From contig CAZEPJ010000014.1 in NCBI GenBank assembly GCA_964514105.1, positions 1,889-65,888 on the forward strand: DNA of 64,000 nucleotides, written 5' to 3'. Below, one piece after another: positions 2,880 to 49,829 of the stretch. The notes under the pieces are model-generated. The model ran no database searches. It worked only from the letters and a program-made list of their open reading frames with translations, and was not told the DNA's origin. Within the stretch, counting starts at the first letter, position 1; the number at the start of each line of letters is the position of its first letter. Source of the stretch: an uncultured Desulfarculaceae bacterium (GTDB lineage: Bacteria; Desulfobacterota; Desulfocorpusculales; Desulfocorpusculum). The position numbers and the translations under genes are program-made.

Positions 2880-3869
2880 ATGACGCAGATGACGAGATGG
2901 ATCCTGGTTTGTCTGGTCTCCACCTTGGCCATAACCATGCCGGGCGCCGCCTGGGCCCAGCAAGGGCCCACCGTGCTCAAACTGGCGCATCTGACGGTCA
3001 AGGGGGGATTCCTGGACCAGAGGGCCCAGAAGTTGGCCGAACTGGTTTCCCAGAAGACCGGGGGGAGCGTGAAGATCGAGGTCTTCCCGGAGCAACAGTT
3101 GGGAAGCATCGATCAGATCCTCCAGGGCGTGTCCAAGGGGACCATCGACATGGCCCAGGAGCTGGAGTCCTTCATGGATGTCTACGAGAAGGACTTCACC
3201 ATCTACTGGGCCCCCTTCATGTTCAGTCGCGAGGAGATCCGGTTCAGCGCGTATCTGGAGGAGCTCCGGGAGCGGGTGCGCAAGAAGGTGGGCATCCGCA
3301 CCCTGCCCGGACTGGCCTTTCGGCCCCCGTTTCACCTCTGGACCCGCAACGAGCAGGTGACCAGCCCCAAGGAGCTCAGGGGGATCAAGCTGCGCGTGTG
3401 GGAGTCCAAGACGCTCTTTGACACCTGGAAAGGCCTGGGGGCCGCGCCCGTCACCATGCCGTGGGGCGACGTGCCCCAAGCGCTGTCCACAGGGACGGTG
3501 GACGGCCTGTTCCACAACATGGTGCAGGTGCGGGACGAGAAGCTCCACGCGAACCTCAAGTATTGCACCCTGTTGAACTTCGTGAAGCTCTATGACGTGA
3601 CCTGGATCAACGACAAGCGCTTCAGCGCCCTGCCGCCCAACGTGCAGAAGGCCCTCAGCGAGGCCGCTCAGGAGGCGGCGGACTGGTTCTCGGCGGAGGC
3701 GCACGCCCTGGACGAGCAGGCCATGAAGGACTGCGCGGCGGCCGGGGTGGTGTTCCTGGACGTGGAGCGGGAGCCCTGGGTGCGCGCGGCCGCCCTGGCG
3801 CACAACGACCTGGAGCGTTCCGGAATCTGGTCCAAAGGGTTGCTCATGAAGCTGGGCAAGGCCTATTGA
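2880..3869 (+). CDS. TRAP transporter substrate-binding protein, DctP family
   Basis: RBS AAAGGAG 5 nt before the ATG at 2880. Signal peptide MTQMTRWILVCLVSTLAITMPGAAWA. DctP-family body (…KLAHLTVKGGFLDQRAQ…FMFSREE…). No dctQM genes are adjacent. Confidence 0.8.
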   Translation: MTQMTRWILVCLVSTLAITMPGAAWAQQGPTVLKLAHLTVKGGFLDQRAQKLAELVSQKTGGSVKIEVFPEQQLGSIDQILQGVSKGTIDMAQELESFMDVYEKDFTIYWAPFMFSREEIRFSAYLEELRERVRKKVGIRTLPGLAFRPPFHLWTRNEQVTSPKELRGIKLRVWESKTLFDTWKGLGAAPVTMPWGDVPQALSTGTVDGLFHNMVQVRDEKLHANLKYCTLLNFVKLYDVTWINDKRFSALPPNVQKALSEAAQEAADWFSAEAHALDEQAMKDCAAAGVVFLDVEREPWVRAAALAHNDLERSGIWSKGLLMKLGKAY

Positions 3870-4004
3870 CCCAGGAGATCCTGCGGATCCCGCGGGGGGC
3901 GCATTGAAGGCCCACGGGCTCATGTCTCGACGGTTGTAGGGACCGCCGGGAGGGCAACGGAGGCACCCCCCCCGCGATCTCGAAACCCGTGAAAGAGGAG
4001 GGGA

Positions 4005-4706
4005 GTGATGAGAGGGAAGCTGATTCCGTTGTTGTTCCTGTTGGCAGCCTTGGCAGGGGCGTGCGCCCCTCAGGCGCACATGGGCGTCCAGGACCGGGCG
4101 TTGATGGCGCCCCCGGAGTTCGCCCAGACCGAGGCGGCCATCGCCCAGGCCGAGAGGTCGCCGGGGGCCAAGCAGTGCCCCGACAAGATCGCCAAGGCCA
4201 AGGAGCTGGCCAAGCAGGGCATCGAGACCTACTGGGCGTGCCGGACCGAGGACGCCCTGAAGATGCTGGCCGAGGCCCGAAGGCTGGCCAAGGAGGCGGA
4301 GGGCTGCCAGCCGCCGCCGGCCCCGGCTCCCAAACCCACGCCGCCTCCTCCGCCGGCGCCGCCCAAAAAGGAGATCAGCTTCAAGTGGGTGTACTTCGAC
4401 TTCGATAAGTTCGTGCTCACGCCGCAGGCCCGGGGCATCCTGGACGAGACCGCCCGGATCCTCCAGGCCAACCCCGAGGTCAAGCTGGAGCTGGCCGGCC
4501 ACACGGACGGCCGGGGCACCGACGGGTACAACCGGCGGCTGTCGGAGAAGCGCAGCAAGGCGGTGTACGACTACCTCATCACCAGGGGCATTGCCCCGGG
4601 TCGCCTCAAGCCCACGGCCTTTGGCGAGGCCAATCCCGTGGCCTCCAACGAGACCGAGGAGGGGCGGGCCAAGAACCGGCGGGTGGAGCTCAAGATCCTC
4701 AGGTAG
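4005..4706 (+). CDS. OmpA-family lipoprotein with a Pro-rich linker and an OmpA C-terminal peptidoglycan-binding domain
   Basis: Lipobox LAGC, then PPPAPAPKPTPPPPPAPP linker, then an OmpA_C domain (…FDFDKFVLTPQARGILDE…LAGHTDGRGTDGYNRRLSEKRSKAV…NRRVEL). RBS GAGGAGGGG upstream. Confidence 0.85.
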   Translation: MMRGKLIPLLFLLAALAGACAPQAHMGVQDRALMAPPEFAQTEAAIAQAERSPGAKQCPDKIAKAKELAKQGIETYWACRTEDALKMLAEARRLAKEAEGCQPPPAPAPKPTPPPPPAPPKKEISFKWVYFDFDKFVLTPQARGILDETARILQANPEVKLELAGHTDGRGTDGYNRRLSEKRSKAVYDYLITRGIAPGRLKPTAFGEANPVASNETEEGRAKNRRVELKILR

Positions 4707-5860: not shown

Positions 5861-6072
5861 GGGATGGCTCAGGGCCTCGACCTATCCCCTCCCCGCCGCA
5901 CCGGAGATAACGTTCCTGTATGGCCCGGGGCCTTCGGGTTACCATTTGGTATCCTTCCATCGGGGCAGATCTCGGGAAATCAAGGGGTTGGATCTGGCAC
6001 GGGCGTTGCATTACCGTCTGTGCGGGCCTCGATTGCGGGCCATGAACCTCGGGGCAGCGAGGGGAGATGGAC

Positions 6073-6333
6073 ATGCAACGGATGACAACGACGGGCGAAG
6101 TCCTCACCCGGAAGATCTCCCTGACCAAAGTGGACTCGGTGGGGAAGGAGCAACGCGGCGCCGTGGTTGGCTGGGAGCACGGGGTCCCCAAGAAGGGGGA
6201 ACGGTACAGCGTGTTCCTGGGAAAAGGCCGGGTCCTGAGGACGAGCCCCGTGGAGGACGTGCGGACGAGTGCGGACGCGGTCCTGATCAAGACGGCCAAC
6301 TCCATCTACCGCGTCCAATACCTCAAGGGATGA
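6073..6333 (+). CDS. Small hypothetical protein carrying a conserved ~70-aa domain that recurs in two other proteins in this window
   Basis: RBS GGGGAG 6 nt before the ATG at 6073. The C-terminal part aligns with the C-termini of ORFs 36748-37236 and 47559-48113 (RYxV…V.R(T/S)S.(V/I)..V…T.NS.Y). Confidence 0.5.
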   Translation: MQRMTTTGEVLTRKISLTKVDSVGKEQRGAVVGWEHGVPKKGERYSVFLGKGRVLRTSPVEDVRTSADAVLIKTANSIYRVQYLKG

Positions 6334-23423: not shown

Positions 23424-24568
23424 CCCTCCGCCTCCGCGTCCCATTGCCTCGCAGGCCCCCGCGGGGCGGCGGACCGGGAGATCCAGCCCCCCCCCAGGAC
23501 CTCGTCGCCCTGGTACAGAACCACGGCCTGCCCCGGCGCGATGGCGTGCTGCGGGGTTTGGAACCGGACGCCGATCCGCCCGTGCTCCAGCACGGTCACC
23601 GTTGCCGGGGCCTCGCGGTGCCGATAGCGGATCCGCGCCCGGGCCTCAAACACCCGCGCCGGAGGTTCCCCCAGCACCCAGGAGACCTCCTCGGCTTCCA
23701 GGACGCCCCCGGCCAATTCCCGCCGGGGCCCCACCACCACCCGCCTTTCCTCGGGCAGGAGCCGTAGCACGTACAACGGCTCCTTCCAGGGCACCCGCAG
23801 ACCGCGGCGCTGCCCCACCGTGAAGCCGCAGACCCCGCCGTGCGTCCCCAGGACCGCTCCCGCCGAATCCACGACCTCGCCGCGCCCGCCGGCGTCGTCC
23901 CCCAGGTACGACGCCAGAAACCCCCGGTAGTCATGGTCTGGAATGAAGCATAGCTCCTGGCTCTCGGCTTTCTGCGCCACGCAGAGCCCCCATTGCCGCG
24001 CCAGGGCCCTCACCCGGGCCTTGGACAGCCTTCCCACGGGCCACAGGATCGATGCCATCTGCGCCTGTCCCAGGGGAAACAGGAAGTACGACTGATCCTT
24101 GTCCGGGTCCGCCCCCCGTCGGAGGCGGAAAGGCCCCCCGCCGGGATCCCGTGCCTTGACGGCATAGTGGCCCGTGGCCAAAAAATCGACCCCGGCCTCC
24201 CGCGCCATGTCCAAAAGGAGGCCGAACTTGATCCGCTGGTTGCAGCGAATGCAGGGGTTTGGGGTGAGACCCTCGCGGTACGCGGCCACGAACTGTTCCA
24301 TGACCTCTGTGCGAAAAGCCGCCTGCAGGTCCACCACGCGAAACGGGATGCCCAGGGCGCGGGCCAGCTCCCGCGCGTCCCGCTCATCCCGGGGGGAACA
24401 GCAGCTGCCCCGGCCCCGCCGCTCCAGGAGCCGGCAGTCCCACAGATCCATGAACAGCCCCTCCACGGCGTAACCTTCCCGCACGAGCAGCCCCGCGGCC
24501 ACGGCGCTGTCCACGCCGCCGCTCATGGCTGCCCACACCCGTTTGCCGCGGGAAGCCGCGATGATCAT
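23420..24568 (-). CDS. mnmA: tRNA 2-thiouridine(34) synthase MnmA, the Cys-rich variant presumed to bind Fe-S
   Basis: PP-loop AAMSGGVDSAV, and the NPCIRCN and …DQSYFL… motifs. The extra Cys (SCCSP, PCIRC) are typical of the [4Fe-4S]-dependent MnmA subtype. Confidence 0.85.
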   Translation of the reverse strand: MIIAASRGKRVWAAMSGGVDSAVAAGLLVREGYAVEGLFMDLWDCRLLERRGRGSCCSPRDERDARELARALGIPFRVVDLQAAFRTEVMEQFVAAYREGLTPNPCIRCNQRIKFGLLLDMAREAGVDFLATGHYAVKARDPGGGPFRLRRGADPDKDQSYFLFPLGQAQMASILWPVGRLSKARVRALARQWGLCVAQKAESQELCFIPDHDYRGFLASYLGDDAGGRGEVVDSAGAVLGTHGGVCGFTVGQRRGLRVPWKEPLYVLRLLPEERRVVVGPRRELAGGVLEAEEVSWVLGEPPARVFEARARIRYRHREAPATVTVLEHGRIGVRFQTPQHAIAPGQAVVLYQGDEVLGGGWISRSAAPRGPARQWDAEAEG

Positions 24569-24578
24569 GGGGGCGGAT

Positions 24579-24998
24579 TCAGATGGTGGCCGTCTGCAGG
24601 GCCCGGCTGGGGCAGGTGGGCATGCACAGCCCGCATCCGCTGCATCGCTTGTTCTCGAAGAGGACCTCCATGGTCCCGGGGTCCATGCGCAGGGCATGGG
24701 TGGCGCACACCGCCGTGCACGCGCCGCAGTGGTAGCACAGCGCCTCGTCCCGCTGGACGTCCCGCTCCACAGGCTTGACGGTGATGCCGTTCTCCTTGAG
24801 GTAGCGGAGGCCTTTGCGGTAGTTGCCCAGGCTTCCGCTCAGCTCCATGACCATGTAGCTCTCCTGCCGGGGGAGCACATGGGCCTTGAGGATGTTGAAC
24901 ACCAGGTCGTAGTCCTTGACCAGCCGGTACACGATGGGCTTGTCGTACGTGGCCCTGGAGAAATACAGGACGATCTTCTTGGAGACATCCTGGGTCAT
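24579..24998 (-). CDS. NIL-domain protein fused to a 2x[4Fe-4S] ferredoxin
   Basis: RBS AGGAGG before the ATG (MTQDVSKKIVLYF…). N-terminal NIL-like domain, then two CxxCxxCxxxC motifs (CYHCGACTAVC, CSGCGLCMPTC). Its stop is 10 nt before the mnmA start. Confidence 0.7.
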   Translation of the reverse strand: MTQDVSKKIVLYFSRATYDKPIVYRLVKDYDLVFNILKAHVLPRQESYMVMELSGSLGNYRKGLRYLKENGITVKPVERDVQRDEALCYHCGACTAVCATHALRMDPGTMEVLFENKRCSGCGLCMPTCPSRALQTATI

Positions 24999-25229
24999 GG
25001 AGCCCCTCCTGAGCGCTCTTGTCCATGTATCATACGCCCTTTGGTCCCCTTGGTTCAAGTTCCCGGCCCCCCTGGGAGGGACAGGCCCCGCCCTCGGCCC
25101 ATCCTCGGCCGGGAGCGGCCTTGTCCCCGGCCCTTGTTTGTGGTAAGAAGTAATCAAAGAAGTGCCCTTGAGATCCCCAAGCGTGTGGAAGCGTCGCCCC
25201 CCCGGAGGGGGCTTTGTTTTGGTGAGCCC

Positions 25230-26564
25230 ATGGCGGTCATCGCGCCCTTTCGCGCATGGCGGTACAGCACGGAGAAGATCTCCGACCTCTCCTCGGTCCT
25301 GGCGCCGCCCTACGACGTCATAGAACCCGCCCAGCAGCGCCAACTCCATGAGCGGCATCCGTGGAACGTCATCCGGCTGGAGTCGGGGGAGTCCTTTCCC
25401 GACGACACGCCCCGGGAGAACCGGTACAGCCGTGCGGCCGACTTCCTGAGGGCCTGGCAGCGAGAGGGGGTGCTGCGGCGAGACGAGGTCCCGGCCGTGT
25501 ACGTGTCCCAGCAGGATTTCGAGGGACCCGACGGCAGGCGGCTGGCTCGCAGGGGGTTCGTCTGTCTTCTCCGGCTGGAGCCGCTGGAGGGCGGGACGGT
25601 GTTCCCCCACGAGCAGACCTTTCCCAAACACAAGGCGGACCGGCTGAGTCTGCTGCGTGCCTGCCGCGCCCATTTCAACCCCATCTTCTCCATCTTCCCC
25701 GACGAGGACAGCCGGGTGGAAGCGCTCCTGGGGGTCGGTGACCTCCCCCTGGCCGGGGAGGCCTGGGACGATCGTGGCGTGCGCCATCGCCTCTGGCCTC
25801 TGGAAGATCCCACCCGGATCCGAGCCCTGGTGCAAGCCATGGGGGACAGGCCGGTATTCATCGCCGACGGCCACCACCGGTACGAGACCTGCCTCCGGTA
25901 CGAGCAGGAACGGGCGGCGGCCGAAACCCCGAGCCGGGATCCCGTGCACTGGGCCCTCATGTACCTCACCCCCATGGAGGGCGAGGGCCTGGTCATTTAC
26001 CCCACCCACAAGATGGTTCAGGACGTCCCGGGGCTGGACGCCGCCGGGCTGCTCAAGGCCCTGTCCGTCCACTTCCGTGTGGAGCCCTATGCCGCGGGCC
26101 GTCAGGACCCGGTGGAGGCCTGCCGGGGCTTCCAGCGTTCGCTGCGAGAGGCTGGAGAGGGAGGCTGCGCCCTGGGCCTGGCCGTGGCCGCCGACCCCCC
26201 CCTTTGGATCCTCACTCCCAGGGACCTCCCCGGCCTGACCCGGGACCTCTCCCATCTCCCCCAGTGCATCCGAGGTCTGGACGTGTCCATCCTCCACGCT
26301 GTGGTGCTCAAGGGGGTCCTGGGCATCGACGTGTCGGACCCCGCCGATCGACACCTCAGCTACGTGCGCGAGGCGCAGGAGGCCGTGACGCGGGTCCGGG
26401 GGGGACAGGTCCAGGCGGCCTTCATCATGAACCCGACCCGGGTGGAGGCATTGAAGGCAGTGGCCGCCGCCAGATGCACCATGCCCCAGAAGGCGACCTA
26501 CTTCTACCCCAAGCTCCTCTCGGGCCTGGTGATCCACACCCTGGATGAACCCGTGCAAGGATGA
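25230..26564 (+). CDS. DUF1015 domain-containing protein
   Basis: Begins MAVIAPFRAWRYSTEKISDLSSVLAPPYDVI, the DUF1015 hallmark N-terminus, in a ~445-aa protein. Confidence 0.75.
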   Translation: MAVIAPFRAWRYSTEKISDLSSVLAPPYDVIEPAQQRQLHERHPWNVIRLESGESFPDDTPRENRYSRAADFLRAWQREGVLRRDEVPAVYVSQQDFEGPDGRRLARRGFVCLLRLEPLEGGTVFPHEQTFPKHKADRLSLLRACRAHFNPIFSIFPDEDSRVEALLGVGDLPLAGEAWDDRGVRHRLWPLEDPTRIRALVQAMGDRPVFIADGHHRYETCLRYEQERAAAETPSRDPVHWALMYLTPMEGEGLVIYPTHKMVQDVPGLDAAGLLKALSVHFRVEPYAAGRQDPVEACRGFQRSLREAGEGGCALGLAVAADPPLWILTPRDLPGLTRDLSHLPQCIRGLDVSILHAVVLKGVLGIDVSDPADRHLSYVREAQEAVTRVRGGQVQAAFIMNPTRVEALKAVAAARCTMPQKATYFYPKLLSGLVIHTLDEPVQG

Positions 26565-34877: not shown

Positions 34878-35380
34878 CTGCCCTCCCCCCGTTCCTGCAG
34901 TGGCGACCCCGCGTCCACGGGACCCGCGCCCGTGCGGCCAATCCAGGGGCGCGTGCCCGGCCCCCCTTCTCCGTGCGGCTGGACCGTCGAGCAGGCGGCC
35001 GGTCGTTATCCAAACAAATTGGACCACTCTTGTCAATCTCAACCGCCGTTCCGGTCCAACCCGTCCATTCCAGGTGCCAGCCCGTTGTCCCGGCGTCCTG
35101 CTCCGACGAAGAGGCGAGGAGGCGCCCACGGCAGGCCAGCAGGCCGTGAGGCTCCAAGCGGGATCGAGCGAGGCATCATGGGAGGACGACCAGGAAAGAG
35201 GGCACGGATACCGGGCAGGCGAGCCGCCACAGGGTCATTGCCCGGGCGTCGAGCCCTGGGGCCTGGGGCCCCCCTTACTTGGGCGATGCAGCGGATACCG
35301 GTTTGCCCTCCCGGGCGAGATGGATTAAGATGCTGGGGCCGCCCGCGCGTCGAGACGCCATCGAGGGCATTGGGGATTTC

Positions 35381-36637
35381 ATGGGATACCAGCTGTGGAT
35401 CGGTCTCAAGTACTTGCGTGCCAAGCGAAGGCACGCGACCATCTCGGTCGTCACCTTTTTGTCGGTCCTGGGGGTGGGGGTCGGGGTCACGGCCCTCATC
35501 GTCGTGATTTCCGTGATCAACGGCTTCGAGGAGAACCTCAAGGAGAGAATCCTTGGGCTGACGGCCCATGCCCTCGTGTTTCAGCGGGGGCAGGAGATGA
35601 AGGACTGGGGGGAGGCCCGCCGGCAACTCCTGGAGGTGCCGGGCGTGGCCGGGGCCAGCCCCTTCATCGTCCGCGAGGTGATCCTCCAGGGAGCGACCAA
35701 GAGCGTGCAGGCGGTCATTCGCGCCGTGGACCCCCAGACCGTGGAAACCGTCATCCCGTTGGCCAAGATCCTTCAGGCGGGTCGCCTGTCCGATCTGAAT
35801 CCGCCCGACGGGGGCGACTATCCCGGGATCATCCTGGGCAAGGAACTCCTGAGAGAACTGGGGGCCGCCGTGGGCGACACGGTGGTCCTCGTTTCCCCCG
35901 AGGGCACTCTCACCCCATGGGGAAACCTTCCCAAATGGAAGCGGTTTCAGGTCAAGGGGTTTTTCGATGCGGGCTACTGGGACTTCGACTCCAAGGTGGG
36001 CCATATCTCCATCGCCGTGGCCCAGGATCTCTTTGAGATCCACGACCGGGTCACCGGGATCGAGCTGCGAATGCCCGACATCTACGCCGCTCCGCGGGTA
36101 CGCTTGAAGATTCACCAATCTCCCCTGGGCGCGAACTTCATCGTCCAGGACTGGACCCAGCTCAACCGCAACATCATGATCGCCCTGTCCATGCAGAAAC
36201 GGGTCATCTTCATCATCCTGCTGTGCATCGTGGGCGTGGCGGCGCTGCTCATCATCAGCATCCTGGTCATGATGGTGATGGAGAAGCAGAAGGAGATCGC
36301 CGTGCTCAAGGCCATGGGGGCCCGCTCCATGCACATCCTGTGCATCTTCGTCTGCCAGGGGCTCCTCATCGGGTCCGCGGGCACGGTCCTGGGATGCCTC
36401 GGAGGACTTCTCATCTCCTGGAATCTGGAGTGGATCGTCGGCGCCCTGGAACGAGCCCTGGACGTGCGCTTCCTCCCCGAGGACGTGTACTACGTGGGAC
36501 AGTTGACGTCCCGGGTCAGCCCGGCCGACCTGGGAATCATCGTGGTCGTCACCCTGCTTATCAGCGTGACCGCGAGCCTCTATCCGTCATGGCGCGCCTC
36601 CCGCCTGGACCCCGTGGAGGGGTTGCGGTACGAATGA
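35381..36637 (+). CDS. lolE: Lipoprotein-releasing system permease, LolC/LolE family (FtsX-like)
   Basis: Begins MGYQLWIGLKYLRAKRRHATISVVT. Four TM helices, a large periplasmic MacB-like domain, and the C-terminal FtsX motif. No lolD is adjacent. Confidence 0.8.
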   Translation: MGYQLWIGLKYLRAKRRHATISVVTFLSVLGVGVGVTALIVVISVINGFEENLKERILGLTAHALVFQRGQEMKDWGEARRQLLEVPGVAGASPFIVREVILQGATKSVQAVIRAVDPQTVETVIPLAKILQAGRLSDLNPPDGGDYPGIILGKELLRELGAAVGDTVVLVSPEGTLTPWGNLPKWKRFQVKGFFDAGYWDFDSKVGHISIAVAQDLFEIHDRVTGIELRMPDIYAAPRVRLKIHQSPLGANFIVQDWTQLNRNIMIALSMQKRVIFIILLCIVGVAALLIISILVMMVMEKQKEIAVLKAMGARSMHILCIFVCQGLLIGSAGTVLGCLGGLLISWNLEWIVGALERALDVRFLPEDVYYVGQLTSRVSPADLGIIVVVTLLISVTASLYPSWRASRLDPVEGLRYE

Positions 36638-36747: not shown

Positions 36748-37236
36748 ATGACTGAGAACCGACGCAAGGAGATTCGCCGGGAGACGGACCGGGTCCTCGA
36801 CAAGCTCCTGGAGACCCTTCAGGTGGTGGAGAAGATCTCCAGGGGTGAGCAGGCCGACTTCACGGAGGCCTATGCCGACCTGGTCGGCCTCAAGAACCAG
36901 CTCGGCAGGCGGGAGGTGGACCGGCGAATCGGAGATGCCCTCTGCGCCACCATCGGCGCCATCGCGTCCAATATCGGCCACCCCGGGGAGACCAAGGAGC
37001 AACCTGCCGAGGAGCGATTGAGGCGCGTCCGCCTCACCAAGGTGAGCGGAGGCAAAGGCCACGCCACCATCGCCGGATGGGAGGAAGCGCCCCCGGAGGT
37101 GGGAAAGAGCTACCGGGTGTTTCAGGAAAACGGCAGCGTGGTGCGCACCTCCCCCATCACCCGTGTCTCGGAAGGGTTCGTTCAGACCCGCAACTCATTG
37201 TACCAACTGGAGATCCTTGGAGAGCAGACGGCGTGA
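36748..37236 (+). CDS. Hypothetical protein, second member of the conserved C-terminal-domain family
   Basis: Charged N-terminal region. The C-terminus (…RRVRLTKVSGGKGHATIAGWEE…SYRVFQENGSVVRTSPITRVSEGFVQTRNSLYQLEIL) aligns with the ORFs at 6073 and 47559. Confidence 0.5.
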   Translation: MTENRRKEIRRETDRVLDKLLETLQVVEKISRGEQADFTEAYADLVGLKNQLGRREVDRRIGDALCATIGAIASNIGHPGETKEQPAEERLRRVRLTKVSGGKGHATIAGWEEAPPEVGKSYRVFQENGSVVRTSPITRVSEGFVQTRNSLYQLEILGEQTA

Positions 37237-38387: not shown

Positions 38388-38739
38388 TGGTGGAGGCGGC
38401 GGGAGTCGAACCCGCGTCCGGAAACCTTCAGCCAAGGCATCTACATACATAGCTCCTGTTTTGATCTCACCCGCCTCGGCTCCCAGGAGCAGGATCCTCG
38501 GCGGGCCAGCCTACTTGAATCTCGCCGCATCCCCTGCAGGCGTCAGGGATTTGGCCATCCCGCTGTTCGACGTCCTGTCCGGCCCCGCGGGCTGAACCGG
38601 AAGGACGTGGCCTTAAGCGGCCAGGGCGTAGTCGTAGTTGTCGGCGACTAACTTTGAGCCCTATCTGTTTAACGAGGGGATAGGAACCTCGGCATGCAGC
38701 CTTGACCTCAACTGTCCCCGTCGAAACCTTTTCGCCCCC
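38388..38739 (-). ncRNA. ssrA: tmRNA (ssrA, transfer-messenger RNA)
   Basis: The 5' end GGGGGCGAAAAGGTTTCGACGGGG and the 3' end …GGACGCGGGTTCGACTCCCGCCGCCTCCACCA (T-arm, acceptor stem with G3:U, CCA). Internal tag ORF AGUC|GCC GAC AAC TAC GAC TAC GCC CTG GCC GCT TAA, giving tag ADNYDYALAA. Length 352 nt. Confidence 0.85.
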
Positions 38740-46597: not shown

Positions 46598-47323
46598 TCA
46601 GGCCAGGGGGTTTTTCCACTGGTTGACGACCACGCCCAACAGCTTGGCGCCGGCTGCGTCGAGCATCATCCGGGCCCTCTTCACCATGTGTCGCGACGTC
46701 ACGTTGGCCAGGACCACGAGGATCACCCCGTCCACGGCCCTGGCCAGGGCCACGGGATCCATCATCCGGCGGTTGGTCGGGAACACGGACGATGCGTCCA
46801 GCACCACCGTGTCGTACGCCCGCCGGGCCCACTGAACGATGCCCAGACCCAACTCGGTCACGTTTCCCCCGCCCGATCCCGGCGGCACGCCGTCGACGGC
46901 GGACAGGATCTCCAGTCCGTTGAGACCCGAAGGCTGCACCAAACCGCGCAGCACCTCCGCACCCTCCAGAACCACTTCGTCGGGTTTGCCCTCTTTGGGC
47001 GGCGCAGGGGGAGGCCCCGCCGGTCGGGACGGCAGTCTCTCTGCTTCGATGAGGCCCAGACCGAACAGGGTGTGGAGGGCGGGGGCGTACCAGTTCAAGT
47101 CAACGGTCAGGACACGCTGGTGATCCTGAGTGGCGGCCACCGTGGCCAGGCCGGCGGCCACCGTCGTTTTCCCCTCTCCGGGCATGGAGCTTGTGACGAG
47201 CACGCAACGGGAGGCGGCTTTGGGCAAGGTGGCCGAGGCGGCGGCGTGGATGCGCTTCACCTCGGCTATTTGCGAGAGCAATCCCAAGCGCGACGCGGCA
47301 TCTGAGCCCATTGCGAAGACCAC
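46598..47323 (-). CDS. CpsD/CapB-type (BY-kinase-like) P-loop ATPase without a C-terminal Tyr cluster
   Basis: Walker A …VLVTSSMPGEGKTTVAAGLA…, Walker A' and B motifs (…VVLDASSV…). It ends …VNQWKNPLA, so no Y-rich tail. Confidence 0.65.
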   Translation of the reverse strand: MVFAMGSDAASRLGLLSQIAEVKRIHAAASATLPKAASRCVLVTSSMPGEGKTTVAAGLATVAATQDHQRVLTVDLNWYAPALHTLFGLGLIEAERLPSRPAGPPPAPPKEGKPDEVVLEGAEVLRGLVQPSGLNGLEILSAVDGVPPGSGGGNVTELGLGIVQWARRAYDTVVLDASSVFPTNRRMMDPVALARAVDGVILVVLANVTSRHMVKRARMMLDAAGAKLLGVVVNQWKNPLA

Positions 47324-47558: not shown

Positions 47559-48113
47559 TTGGGGGTCCATATCAAAGCCATGGGCCGCGCGACCCGAGGG
47601 AGGGATGTGGACGGTTACCCGATCATTGCCACGGGGCTGATCTCACTGTGCGTCGGGTTTCTGGCCGGACGGCTCTGGGGCCATCGGTGGAAACGCGAGG
47701 CCGACTACCTGAAGAAACAGCTGGATGAGACCGAGCGGCTGCTGGACGGACTGGCCTGGATCGGAGGCAGCCACCGTCCCGAGCCCCAGGTCACGGCCCA
47801 GGAAAACCCCCCCGGGCCCCAGCCGGCCACCCGCGCGGAACTGGAGAACACGCAGAACGTGGGCGTGACCCAGCCCCCCGAGACCCCGTCTCCTGCCAAG
47901 CGCAGGGTGCGCGTCACGCGGATCCTGGGGAAAAAAGACGGGGTCCAGAGGAACGAATCGTTCGAGGGGCTGGAGGAAGCCCTGCCCATGGTGGGCAAGC
48001 GCTACTGCGTGTCCACGGACCACGACACGGTGATCCGCTCCTCCACGGTCATCCAGGTCGCCTCGGGCTACTTCATGACCCGCAACTCCGTGTACAGGGT
48101 CGACCCGCTCTGA
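47559..48113 (+). CDS. Hypothetical membrane-anchored protein, third member of the conserved C-terminal-domain family
   Basis: N-terminal TM (IIATGLISLCVGFLAGRLW), a Pro-rich linker, and the C-terminus …RRVRVTRILGKKDG…KRYCVSTDHDTVIRSSTVIQVASGYFMTRNSVYRVDPL, which aligns with the ORFs at 6073 and 36748. Confidence 0.5.
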   Translation: MGVHIKAMGRATRGRDVDGYPIIATGLISLCVGFLAGRLWGHRWKREADYLKKQLDETERLLDGLAWIGGSHRPEPQVTAQENPPGPQPATRAELENTQNVGVTQPPETPSPAKRRVRVTRILGKKDGVQRNESFEGLEEALPMVGKRYCVSTDHDTVIRSSTVIQVASGYFMTRNSVYRVDPL

Positions 48114-48146: not shown

Positions 48147-48443
48147 TCACCATTTCTCCATGAGCTCGCCCATGGTCTTGCCCGGCCTGAGCTTGCCCTG
48201 GTAGTTGATGAAGGTCTCCACCTTGACGGGCTCGAACTGCTTCTTGGGGACCGAGGTGGCCTCCTGGTGCCAGAGCCACATGTGTCCCTCCACCGTGTCC
48301 AGGATGAGGACGTTGGGCAGCTCCCGGATCGACCCCGGCTGGAGAAGGATCGCCTGGTACCGACCGGGGCTCTGGGCCTCGACGGAAACGGCCATGCAAG
48401 TGCCGCAAAGGACCGCTGCCAGGACCACCACGAGTGCTTTCAT
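48147..48443 (-). CDS. Small secreted hypothetical protein of 98 aa
   Basis: RBS GGGAGG, then signal peptide MKALVVVLAAVLCGTCMAVSVEA. Confidence 0.5.
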   Translation of the reverse strand: MKALVVVLAAVLCGTCMAVSVEAQSPGRYQAILLQPGSIRELPNVLILDTVEGHMWLWHQEATSVPKKQFEPVKVETFINYQGKLRPGKTMGELMEKW

Positions 48444-48944: not shown

Positions 48945-49829
48945 TCACCGCTTGCCCTTGGCCGGCTTCCCCCCGTACGGTTCGCCCCCGTAGTACGCCT
49001 TGTACGCGTACCCGTAAATGCGGGACGTGAGGTGCTGGGAGTCGTTGAGGATGAGGCCCAGGATCTTGTCTTTGGGCAGGAGGGTCAGGGAGTCCTTGAC
49101 GGCGTTGCGCGGGGTCATATCGTGCCGCACCACGAACACGATCCCCTGAACCAGCTTGGCCAGCACGGCCGGCTCGTTGGTCAGGATCGTCGGGGTCGCG
49201 TCCAGCAGGGTGAGCGGCCCGTCCTCCGTCTCGTTTGCCGCCCGTATGAGGTCGGCCATGCGGGGCGAGGAGATGAGCTCGATGGGGTTCTTCTTGCGCC
49301 CCCCCCCCGGGATGCACTGCAGTCGGGGGATGTCCGTGGGGCGAACCACGGCCGACAGCTCCGCCTCGCCGTTGAGGTACTCCGAGAGCCCAGGCCCCTG
49401 GGGCACGCCGAAGTATTGGTGAAGGGTCGGGTTTCGAACGTCGCAGTCTACCAGAAGCACCGAGTCGTTCAGCCCCTGGGCCACGCTCACGGCCAGGTTG
49501 GCCGCGATGAAGGACTTGCCCTCGCCGGCGATGGCGCTCGTGACCATCACGCTTCGGGGGGGGACGGGCCTGCGGGCGTTGTGAAGGAGGTGGGTGCGGA
49601 TCCGCTTGATCTGCTCCACGATGGGGGAGTCCGGCTGGTTGTGGACGACCAGCATGGGGCTCACGCGCCTCGCCCCGGGCCTCTCGGGCTGGATCATGAG
49701 GGGAAGGACCGGGGCCTCGGCCCGCGCGTTTCCGGCATCGCCCCCCGCTGCGGCCGCGTCCTTGACCTGCGAAGGGGCTTCGCCCCGCTCCCGCTCCGCC
49801 TTCTGCAAAGCCTCAAACACCTTGCTCAT
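48945..49829 (-). CDS. PEP-CTERM-locus exopolysaccharide tyrosine autokinase (TIGR03018-like)
   Basis: Begins MSKVFEALQKAERERGE…, Walker A SAIAGEGKSFIAANLA, and a C-terminal Tyr-rich tail …RIYGYAYKAYYGGEPYGG…. Confidence 0.75.
   Translation of the reverse strand: MSKVFEALQKAERERGEAPSQVKDAAAAGGDAGNARAEAPVLPLMIQPERPGARRVSPMLVVHNQPDSPIVEQIKRIRTHLLHNARRPVPPRSVMVTSAIAGEGKSFIAANLAVSVAQGLNDSVLLVDCDVRNPTLHQYFGVPQGPGLSEYLNGEAELSAVVRPTDIPRLQCIPGGGRKKNPIELISSPRMADLIRAANETEDGPLTLLDATPTILTNEPAVLAKLVQGIVFVVRHDMTPRNAVKDSLTLLPKDKILGLILNDSQHLTSRIYGYAYKAYYGGEPYGGKPAKGKR

Follow-up and report, generated by a model that had tools for sequence, protein, structure and literature searches.

What is the small protein encoded at positions 6073-6333 of this DNA, and why does its single domain recur in two proteins encoded tens of kilobases away? 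The stretch analysed, referred to as the window, comprises 64,000 nucleotides (67% G+C) of contig CAZEPJ010000014.1 (assembly GCA_964514105.1) from an uncultured Desulfarculaceae bacterium, and all coordinates are positions within it unless a different locus is named. A preliminary description, made from the sequence alone, had pointed to three open reading frames (ORFs) on the forward strand, at 6073-6333, 36748-37236 and 47559-48113, here called genes A, B and C, and had proposed that their products have a C-terminal domain in common. All three ORFs are found at these positions, and their comparison shows that A, B and C are paralogs sharing one module of about 75 residues (~72-80 across the three proteins). 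The module defines a protein family that is genuine, small, unnamed and restricted to few lineages.

The similarity among the three proteins lies far above chance. BLASTP comparison of the C-terminal regions gives E-values of 3e-13 for A and B (36% identity), 6e-6 for A and C (34%) and 3e-14 for B and C (39%), and the corresponding Smith-Waterman z-scores against shuffled sequences are 17.8, 9.6 and 19.5. For none of the pairs did any of 2000 residue shuffles attain the observed score; the alignment, whose collapse against shuffled controls had been named beforehand as the outcome that would undo it, thus holds. When a profile of the module was searched against the six-frame translation of the window, the A, B and C ORFs were the only matches (E 1e-25 to 1e-38), and no further copy was found there, the next match having an E-value of about 1. 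All three modules lie on the forward strand. That of A covers 79 residues (6094-6330; AlphaFold2 model m910d3a66089b, alignments A1 and A2) and, as is typical of A-type sequences, has four extra residues inserted between strands 5 and 6. The module of B spans residues 87-159 (37006-37224), as delimited by the hidden Markov model (HMM) envelope and by an AlphaFold2 model, and that of C spans residues 110-184 (47886-48110; HMM envelope, alignments A1 and A6), so that the C protein ends at the last strand of the module.

Conservation and charge were computed on 166 modules. A near-invariant and mostly polar set of residues emerges, consisting of G-W-E, P-x2-G-x2-Y, (R/K)-T-S and T-x-N-S-x-Y. G26, E28, P32, Y38, T67, S70 and Y72 are each conserved in at least 96% of the sequences, G35 and N69 in 90%; position 50 holds T or S in 99%, and the conservation of S51 reaches 81%. 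The first strand follows the pattern [RK][RK]V-x-L-x-K, and the modules tend to be basic, with a mean net charge of +3.4, a positive charge in 78% of cases and a value of +7 for A. The motif list of the preliminary description agrees with this consensus apart from a register slip in C, where G-L-E, and not F-E-G, aligns with G-W-E. In the C-type subfamily, the place of the tryptophan in this motif is taken by L, F, I, Y or H (L in the C protein of the window).

Because the window is GC-rich, the reality of the genes deserves attention. At 67% G+C, spurious long ORFs arise often, every locus including these three carries many overlapping ORFs, and a resemblance caused by low complexity or composition could be envisaged. 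The G+C content at third codon positions (GC3) is nevertheless 0.86, 0.83 and 0.87 in A, B and C, respectively, with the second position lowest in all three, which is the pattern of real genes in a genome of this composition. Together with the shuffle z-scores (9.6-19.5), the 381 clusters of homologs described below, their conserved motifs and three conserved architectures, and confident structure predictions, this coding-type signal refutes an artefact, the probability of which is close to nil. As to the starts, gene A (86 residues, 9.5 kDa) runs from ATG 6073 to a stop codon at 6331-6333, and alternative starts exist at 6067 (88 residues) and 6082; the start at 6073, already preferred previously, is supported by a GGGGAG Shine-Dalgarno sequence at 6061-6066, 6 nt before the ATG. 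Gene B encodes 162 residues, in which a three-helix bundle precedes the module. Gene C, coding for a membrane-anchored protein of 184 residues, begins with TTG 47559, with GGGGGAG located 11 nt upstream; from ATG 47580, the start used in the JGI annotation (identical JGI protein P0029), the product would have 177 residues.

Searched exhaustively with a profile, 1.84 billion cluster representatives yield 381 clusters of the family at E<=1e-3 and 130 at E<=1e-10. Word-indexed searches recovered, from many metagenomes, 15 ortholog clusters for A (44-100% identity) and 13 for B and, for C, only the protein itself; all of these clusters are unnamed or annotated as 'hypothetical protein'. Among species-representative genomes, A-type orthologs occur only in metagenome-assembled genomes (MAGs) of Desulfarculaceae or Thermodesulfobacteriota. 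The distant members that could be looked up are likewise 'hypothetical proteins', with one 'CsgD family regulator' and one entry from a Thermodesulfobacteriota MAG. A tblastn search of 50,697 phage genomes gave nothing significant (best E 0.6), nor was there a significant match in 72,556 plasmids, and an origin from mobile elements was rejected on these grounds.

The preliminary description had also distinguished soluble, extended and membrane-anchored forms, and these turn out to be the three dominant architectures of the whole family. In a census of 179 retrieved sequences, 58 consist of the module only, 63 carry a soluble N-terminal extension and about 35 have one or more N-terminal transmembrane segments, while a C-terminal extension is present in 14 and tandem modules in four (P0030, P0123, P0099 and P0167). 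Clustered on their own, the N-terminal regions yield two classes, a B-type with 42 members and a C-type with 33, to which the C protein of the window belongs. Since these classes are conserved separately, A, B and C represent the three main subfamilies of the family rather than ad hoc variants.

The N-terminal regions of B and C are of different kinds. In B, residues 2-76 (36751-36975, forward strand; AlphaFold2 model, alignments A5 and A8) form a three-helix region; its motif, DFTExYADLVGLKxxLGRRxxDR, shows stronger conservation than the beta module itself. No Pfam family matches the region, and only weak matches to DUF3802 and to the PADLOC model DpdH were obtained. The full-length model of B (m5448918db03e) has a mean predicted local distance difference test (pLDDT) value of 84.2 and a predicted template modelling (pTM) score of 0.45, with helices at residues 2-31, 38-49 and 56-76 (pLDDT 85-91) and strands at 92-101, 107-112, 121-125, 131-141, 144-147 and 150-159. 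Ahead of the module, residues 79-88 form a disordered linker (pLDDT <50); on account of this linker and the low pTM, bundle and module are best regarded as two independent domains.

In C, a transmembrane anchor at residues 22-40 (47622-47678, forward strand; Kyte-Doolittle score 1.74 in a 19-residue window) is followed on the same strand by a charged juxtamembrane helix at residues 41-63 (47679-47747; alignment A6), which corresponds to the C-type consensus E..LR.RL..AE.LLS. A tether rich in Pro, Glu, Gln and Thr (47748-47885, forward strand) then leads to the module. It contains 10 prolines among the 51 residues analysed (62-112), is variable in length and gap-rich in alignment A6, and could not be aligned across the subfamily. 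Across 28 C-type proteins, the 15 residues before the anchor contain on average 0.7 Lys and Arg versus 4.1 after it, and by the positive-inside rule the C-terminus, and with it tether and module, is predicted to face the cytoplasm. The A and B sequences show no signal peptide. Against the N-terminus of C, the LapA_dom profile (PF06305) scores 12 bits (E 0.21), below its gathering score of 28 bits; the same profile matches two other family members at E 1e-4.

Further architectures, although rare, give an indication of the setting in which the module works. In P0166, annotated as a CsgD-family regulator, the module precedes a GerE/LuxR helix-turn-helix (HTH) domain; in P0118, a single cluster, it follows an MshEN and a GAF-like region. 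FHA and Ada Zn-binding domains are found as additional partners, as is DUF6812 (PF20660), which occurs C-terminal of the module, over ~50 residues, in four clusters (P0096, P0122, P0142 and P0170). These rare fusion partners are all cytoplasmic signalling or DNA-binding domains. Literature searches for DUF6812 returned no paper.

An AlphaFold2 model of the A-type module (m910d3a66089b), built on an alignment of 20 module sequences, predicts with confidence (pLDDT 86.5, pTM 0.73) an all-beta fold resembling a small sandwich or barrel, in which DSSP assigns seven strands (residues 6-15, 23-28, 37-43, 46-52, 55-58, 63-66 and 70-76) and no helix. Following the strand order of the model, the conserved motifs map to the places where strands 2, 4 and 6 end and where strands 3 and 7 begin. 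If the sheet is of the up-down type, such positions would lie on the same side, and we infer that the motifs cluster at one pole of the domain. When the model was compared with the PDB by Foldseek, the top matches were the EVH1 domains of Dcp1 and Ena, a RanBD, the N-terminal domain of CARM1 and talin F3, with probabilities up to 0.98, E-values of 0.08-1, root-mean-square deviations of 3.7-6.3 A, and template modelling (TM) scores of 0.45-0.61 normalised to the query and 0.33-0.46 normalised to the target. The nearest folds of the A-type module are peptide- or protein-binding modules, an observation in favour of a binding role. Full-length B retrieves a different set from the PDB, a scatter of small barrels comprising the GatD N-domain, Gemin6, Tudor/PWWP domains, an integrase C-terminal domain and RanBD, all with E>=0.047. 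Against BFVD, the A-type module matches uncharacterised phage proteins of ~100 residues (TM 0.62-0.66, E about 0.013-0.016). The module may accordingly be described as a small seven-strand all-beta domain that is PH-like in outline, a weak assignment in which the superfamily is not established.

The fusions, the tandem copies, the basic charge and the invariant polar motifs together suggest a cytoplasmic binding or adaptor module. The earlier proposal of a small binding or regulatory module, whose testable parts all hold, is strengthened by the fusions to signalling and DNA-binding domains and stays an interpretation. In the reading that we prefer, and to which we would give an even chance, the module recognises a single type of cytoplasmic ligand or acts as an adaptor for it, and its carrier sets localisation or coupling. 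The module would bind a partner protein, a peptide or a small anionic molecule, presumably through its single functional pole, and the carrier would decide where the bound ligand goes or what it is coupled to. Protein C would bring the ligand to the inner membrane by means of its Pro-rich tether and anchor, while B would couple it, across the disordered linker, to a helical-bundle partner or oligomer. As a free module, A would either be unattached to any carrier or compete with B and C. The tandem-module proteins further suggest that modules may act in pairs.

Several observations weigh against this proposal of a common recognition unit. Each informative fusion is rare, being known from one to four cluster representatives, and the one-pole argument derives from the strand order rather than from coordinates. 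Structural matches are all weak, the best Foldseek E-values being 0.08 for the A-type module against the PDB and 0.013 against BFVD, with TM scores of 0.5-0.66. The indicated fold class also differs between the models, as the B model draws Sm, Tudor and SH3-like barrels over PH-like folds. Finally, conservation of the gene neighbourhoods is limited to clades, with other neighbours elsewhere. A narrower and more daring version of the proposal, an undescribed adaptor or tethering system of Thermodesulfobacteriota in which an EVH1/PH-like peptide receptor, or a second-messenger receptor, is distributed over paralogs that partition one ligand between cytosol and inner membrane, with A as soluble competitor, is decidedly improbable at present.

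Two alternative ligand classes have to be considered in this context. The module could be a nucleic-acid-binding small beta-barrel of the Sm, Tudor, SH3 or OB type, with A as a free RNA or DNA binder and with B and C bringing RNA or DNA to the helical partner or to the membrane. Its basic charge and the conserved [RK][RK]V-x-L-x-K first strand would fit such a role, as would the fusions to GerE HTH and Ada Zn-binding domains; in the HTH fusion, however, the module occupies the place usually taken by a sensor or input domain. The B model weakly matches the Sm-like Gemin6, Tudor and PWWP domains, the SH3-like C-terminal domain of retroviral integrase and the ribosomal large-subunit chains 6o90_Q and 5mmi_Q, but with low TM scores and with none of its E-values falling below 0.047, and an Hfq-like protein found at E 0.17 with the first profile was lost with a deeper one. 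Neither Sm1/Sm2 nor any other nucleic-acid-binding motif was recognised in the module, conservation in it is highest at E, T, S, N and Y instead of at basic or aromatic surface pairs, and ~20% of the family is tethered to the membrane. We consider nucleic-acid binding unlikely.

Alternatively, the module could be a receptor specifically for a small anionic ligand. This might be a nucleotide second messenger, as for PilZ, or the head group of an anionic lipid, as for PH domains, and the paralogs would serve as effectors of one signal. Several paralogs per genome are typical of second-messenger effectors such as the PilZ families, and the polar cluster (E, T/S, T, N-S, Y) accompanied by conserved Arg/Lys is the sort of set that binds phosphate or nucleotides. 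The PH-like matches of the A-type model could be read in the same way; the domains matched are, however, the peptide-binding EVH1 and RanBD rather than PH domains that bind lipids, and the module lacks the capping helix. Pfam PilZ, bacterial PH (bPH) and PH profiles give no match even at E<=1, the PilZ motifs RxxxR and D/NxSxxG are absent, and no riboswitch and no cyclase or phosphodiesterase gene is a neighbour in the window. The member in which the module lies behind an MshEN and GAF-like region also speaks for a ligand of this kind, although it represents one cluster. An exclusively anionic-ligand receptor is, in our view, no likelier than a nucleic-acid binder.

Gene neighbourhoods were surveyed at 51 loci (373 kb), 49 of which carry the module; no second module copy was found near any of these 49. 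The loci had been called unrelated in the preliminary description. They are indeed dispersed and share no family-wide partner gene, yet within clades the neighbourhoods are conserved. In the window and at seven of nine Desulfarculaceae-type ortholog loci, gene A and iorB-iorA-like oxidoreductase genes are arranged tail-to-tail, a pairing absent in a relative with 52% identity. In the window, A follows genes for an SLT_2 lytic transglycosylase and an OmpA-family protein. As a separate observation, the module-GerE HTH fusion comes after an SLT lytic transglycosylase gene and before an RpoD-like sigma-70 gene in the same orientation at two loci (L020, 3205-5937; L021, 3188-5937), an order that echoes the succession of SLT_2 and A in the window.

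The contexts of B-type genes were examined at 30 metagenome loci and three others, grouped by identity to the B protein of the window. Orthologs with at least 55% identity are located directly downstream, on the same strand, of a MacB_PCD/FtsX (LolC/E-like) permease gene at 12 loci, one of them in the window, and 30-316 bp separate the two genes. At the head of the dcw cluster (mraZ-rsmH-...-ftsI), those with 40-46% identity are transcribed divergently from mraZ at eight loci (L013, L036, L038, L039 and L042-L045), where the B-type gene lies at about 4001-4480 in most cases, 168-552 bp from mraZ, and a gene for an FAD-oxidoreductase is convergent downstream. At one of these, L044, the gene appears as two overlapping tblastn pieces (3600-3770 and 3760-4071, within 3600-4071), which may reflect a frameshift, a pseudogene or an assembly error. 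A third group (50-54% identity, four loci) is convergent with an Hsp33-like gene or is followed by receiver and PAS sensor genes. Within each B clade the wider gene order is conserved as well, and for this reason the linkages look like inherited synteny.

These neighbours raise the possibility of a role in cell-envelope biogenesis or division, for example as a cytoplasmic accessory factor serving the dcw (mraZ) cluster or a permease of the LolCE/MacB type. Besides the permease linkage (12 loci) and the mraZ linkage (eight loci), the SLT_2 and OmpA-family genes ahead of A, the SLT gene ahead of the module-GerE fusion and a P-loop CbiA/ParA-like gene divergent from C would agree with such a role. 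Each linkage is, however, found in one band of ortholog identity, where conservation of the whole gene order fits synteny better than an operon. The SLT_2 neighbour is absent from all nine A-type ortholog loci, the third B clade has unrelated neighbours, and the C-type locus L017 has no neighbour in common with C in the window; moreover, the modules are cytoplasmic. A specific envelope or division role seems quite remote on this evidence, although the linkages may share a loose theme of this kind. The search for a conserved partner gene ended in rejection, since A/iorBA, B/permease and B/mraZ are each confined to one clade.

A few features of the surroundings may be recorded. The permease gene has no adjacent ABC ATPase gene in the window (35279-36637, forward strand) or at two related loci (L010, 3465-4721; L012, 3714-4970), and an ORF for a lipoprotein-like product of 149-151 residues, which precedes the permease in relatives, is missing from the window. 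Gene C is flanked by two P-loop CbiA/ParA-like genes on the reverse strand, one at 46598-47323, which is the gene divergent from C, and one at 48945-49829, a homolog of which (46-48% identity) lies ~6 kb upstream of the A-type gene at loci L007 and L008. Convergent with C and 33 bp away, a reverse-strand ORF at 48147-48443 encodes 98 residues with a signal-peptide-like N-terminus (GC3 0.90) and has no Pfam match. Within the window, Rfam detected neither a riboswitch nor another known RNA element upstream of A, B or C, and consensus scans for promoters and terminators were uninformative. A single Rfam family exceeds its threshold in the window, that of a complete tmRNA (ssrA, RF00023) at 38388-38739 on the reverse strand (198 bits, E 2.5e-79). 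Elsewhere, two nearly coextensive long ORFs, 24525-26564 on the forward and 24579-26558 on the reverse strand, have identical codon-position G+C (0.77/0.48/0.77), so that the coding strand there is ambiguous from composition alone.

If the preferred interpretation is right, one bacterial lineage has re-used a compact recognition module on three carriers, and the module would provide a handle on a ligand or partner in poorly studied sulfate reducers known mostly from MAGs. A new domain entry comprising three subfamilies could be created for the family, by which several hundred 'hypothetical proteins' would gain an annotation. It has no bearing on a long-standing open question, small lineage-restricted domains are common, and its value will be incremental unless the ligand is found.

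How, then, does the module compare with known systems? As had been stated at the outset, it could not be placed in a named family: scans of A, B and C against Pfam, NCBIfam, PHROG and PADLOC gave no significant family, and sequence-profile searches of the PDB with the module gave no significant match. The best PHROG hit (E 0.0026) is to a family of unknown function, and the PADLOC DpdH match (E 0.017) is confined to the helical part of B. The only recurrent Pfam match is DUF6957 (PF22275), itself a domain of unknown function, which was found in four of 54 diverse modules in a permissive scan (best E 0.0034). Against B it scores 12.1 bits (E 0.15; gathering score 27 bits) and covers residues 126-154, the RTS...T-x-NS-x-Y part, corresponding to ~30 of 112 model positions. 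Every score falls well short of the gathering score, although a distant kinship with DUF6957 may exist. Literature searches for DUF6957 and PF22275 found no paper.

In size, all-beta composition and basic charge, the module is similar to Sm/Hfq, Tudor, SH3-like and WW domains, and its GWE-x6-G-x-Y hairpin resembles the first hairpin of WW. The WW domain was matched at E 0.04-0.18 with a profile of 20 sequences but at only 0.76 with one of 54 sequences, and a match to the Hfq-like MJ1435 (E 0.17 with the first profile) disappeared with the second. Both relationships were rejected, because the matches fade as the profile deepens and because of the seven-strand fold, which compares with three strands in WW and five in Sm/Hfq. 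Moreover, the second conserved Trp of WW is absent, and the module lacks the helix and the Sm1/Sm2 motifs of Sm/Hfq. PilZ (PF07238) has no Pfam match among A, B, C and the 54 modules. Its RxxxR and [D/N]xSxxG motifs are absent from the module, in which N of the T-x-N-S-x-Y motif is directly followed by S without a subsequent Gly, and [RK][RK]V-x-L-x-K lies inside strand 1.

Bacterial PH families such as the YdbT-like PF03703 often stand behind N-terminal transmembrane helices. From what is generally known of bPH proteins, the C-type proteins share this architectural idea of a membrane anchor followed by a small cytoplasmic beta-sandwich. The bPH profiles nevertheless do not match A, B or C at E<=10 or the 54 modules at E<=1, no bPH structure is among the top 50 PDB fold matches, and the C-terminal helix of bPH is missing from the module. 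Overall, the best structural matches are the BFVD phage proteins of ~90-116 residues (for example A0A6J5LZT0 and A0A8S5P063; probability 1.00), which are uncharacterised and share 14-20% sequence identity with the module.

PH-like domains (EVH1, RanBD, CARM1 and talin F3) are known from eukaryotes, whereas the module family is bacterial and shares no sequence similarity with them, and the B-type model does not retrieve them preferentially. Their C-terminal capping helix is also absent, A and C ending 0-3 residues past the last strand; the N-terminal helices of B were considered as the missing cap and rejected, as they are undocked (pTM 0.45) and separated by the disordered linker. The likeness nonetheless extends to seven-strand antiparallel all-beta architecture and to similar size and shape. 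Like these domains, moreover, the module is small, non-catalytic and placed on varied carriers. It is thus a new family within a familiar kind, that of small non-catalytic beta modules.

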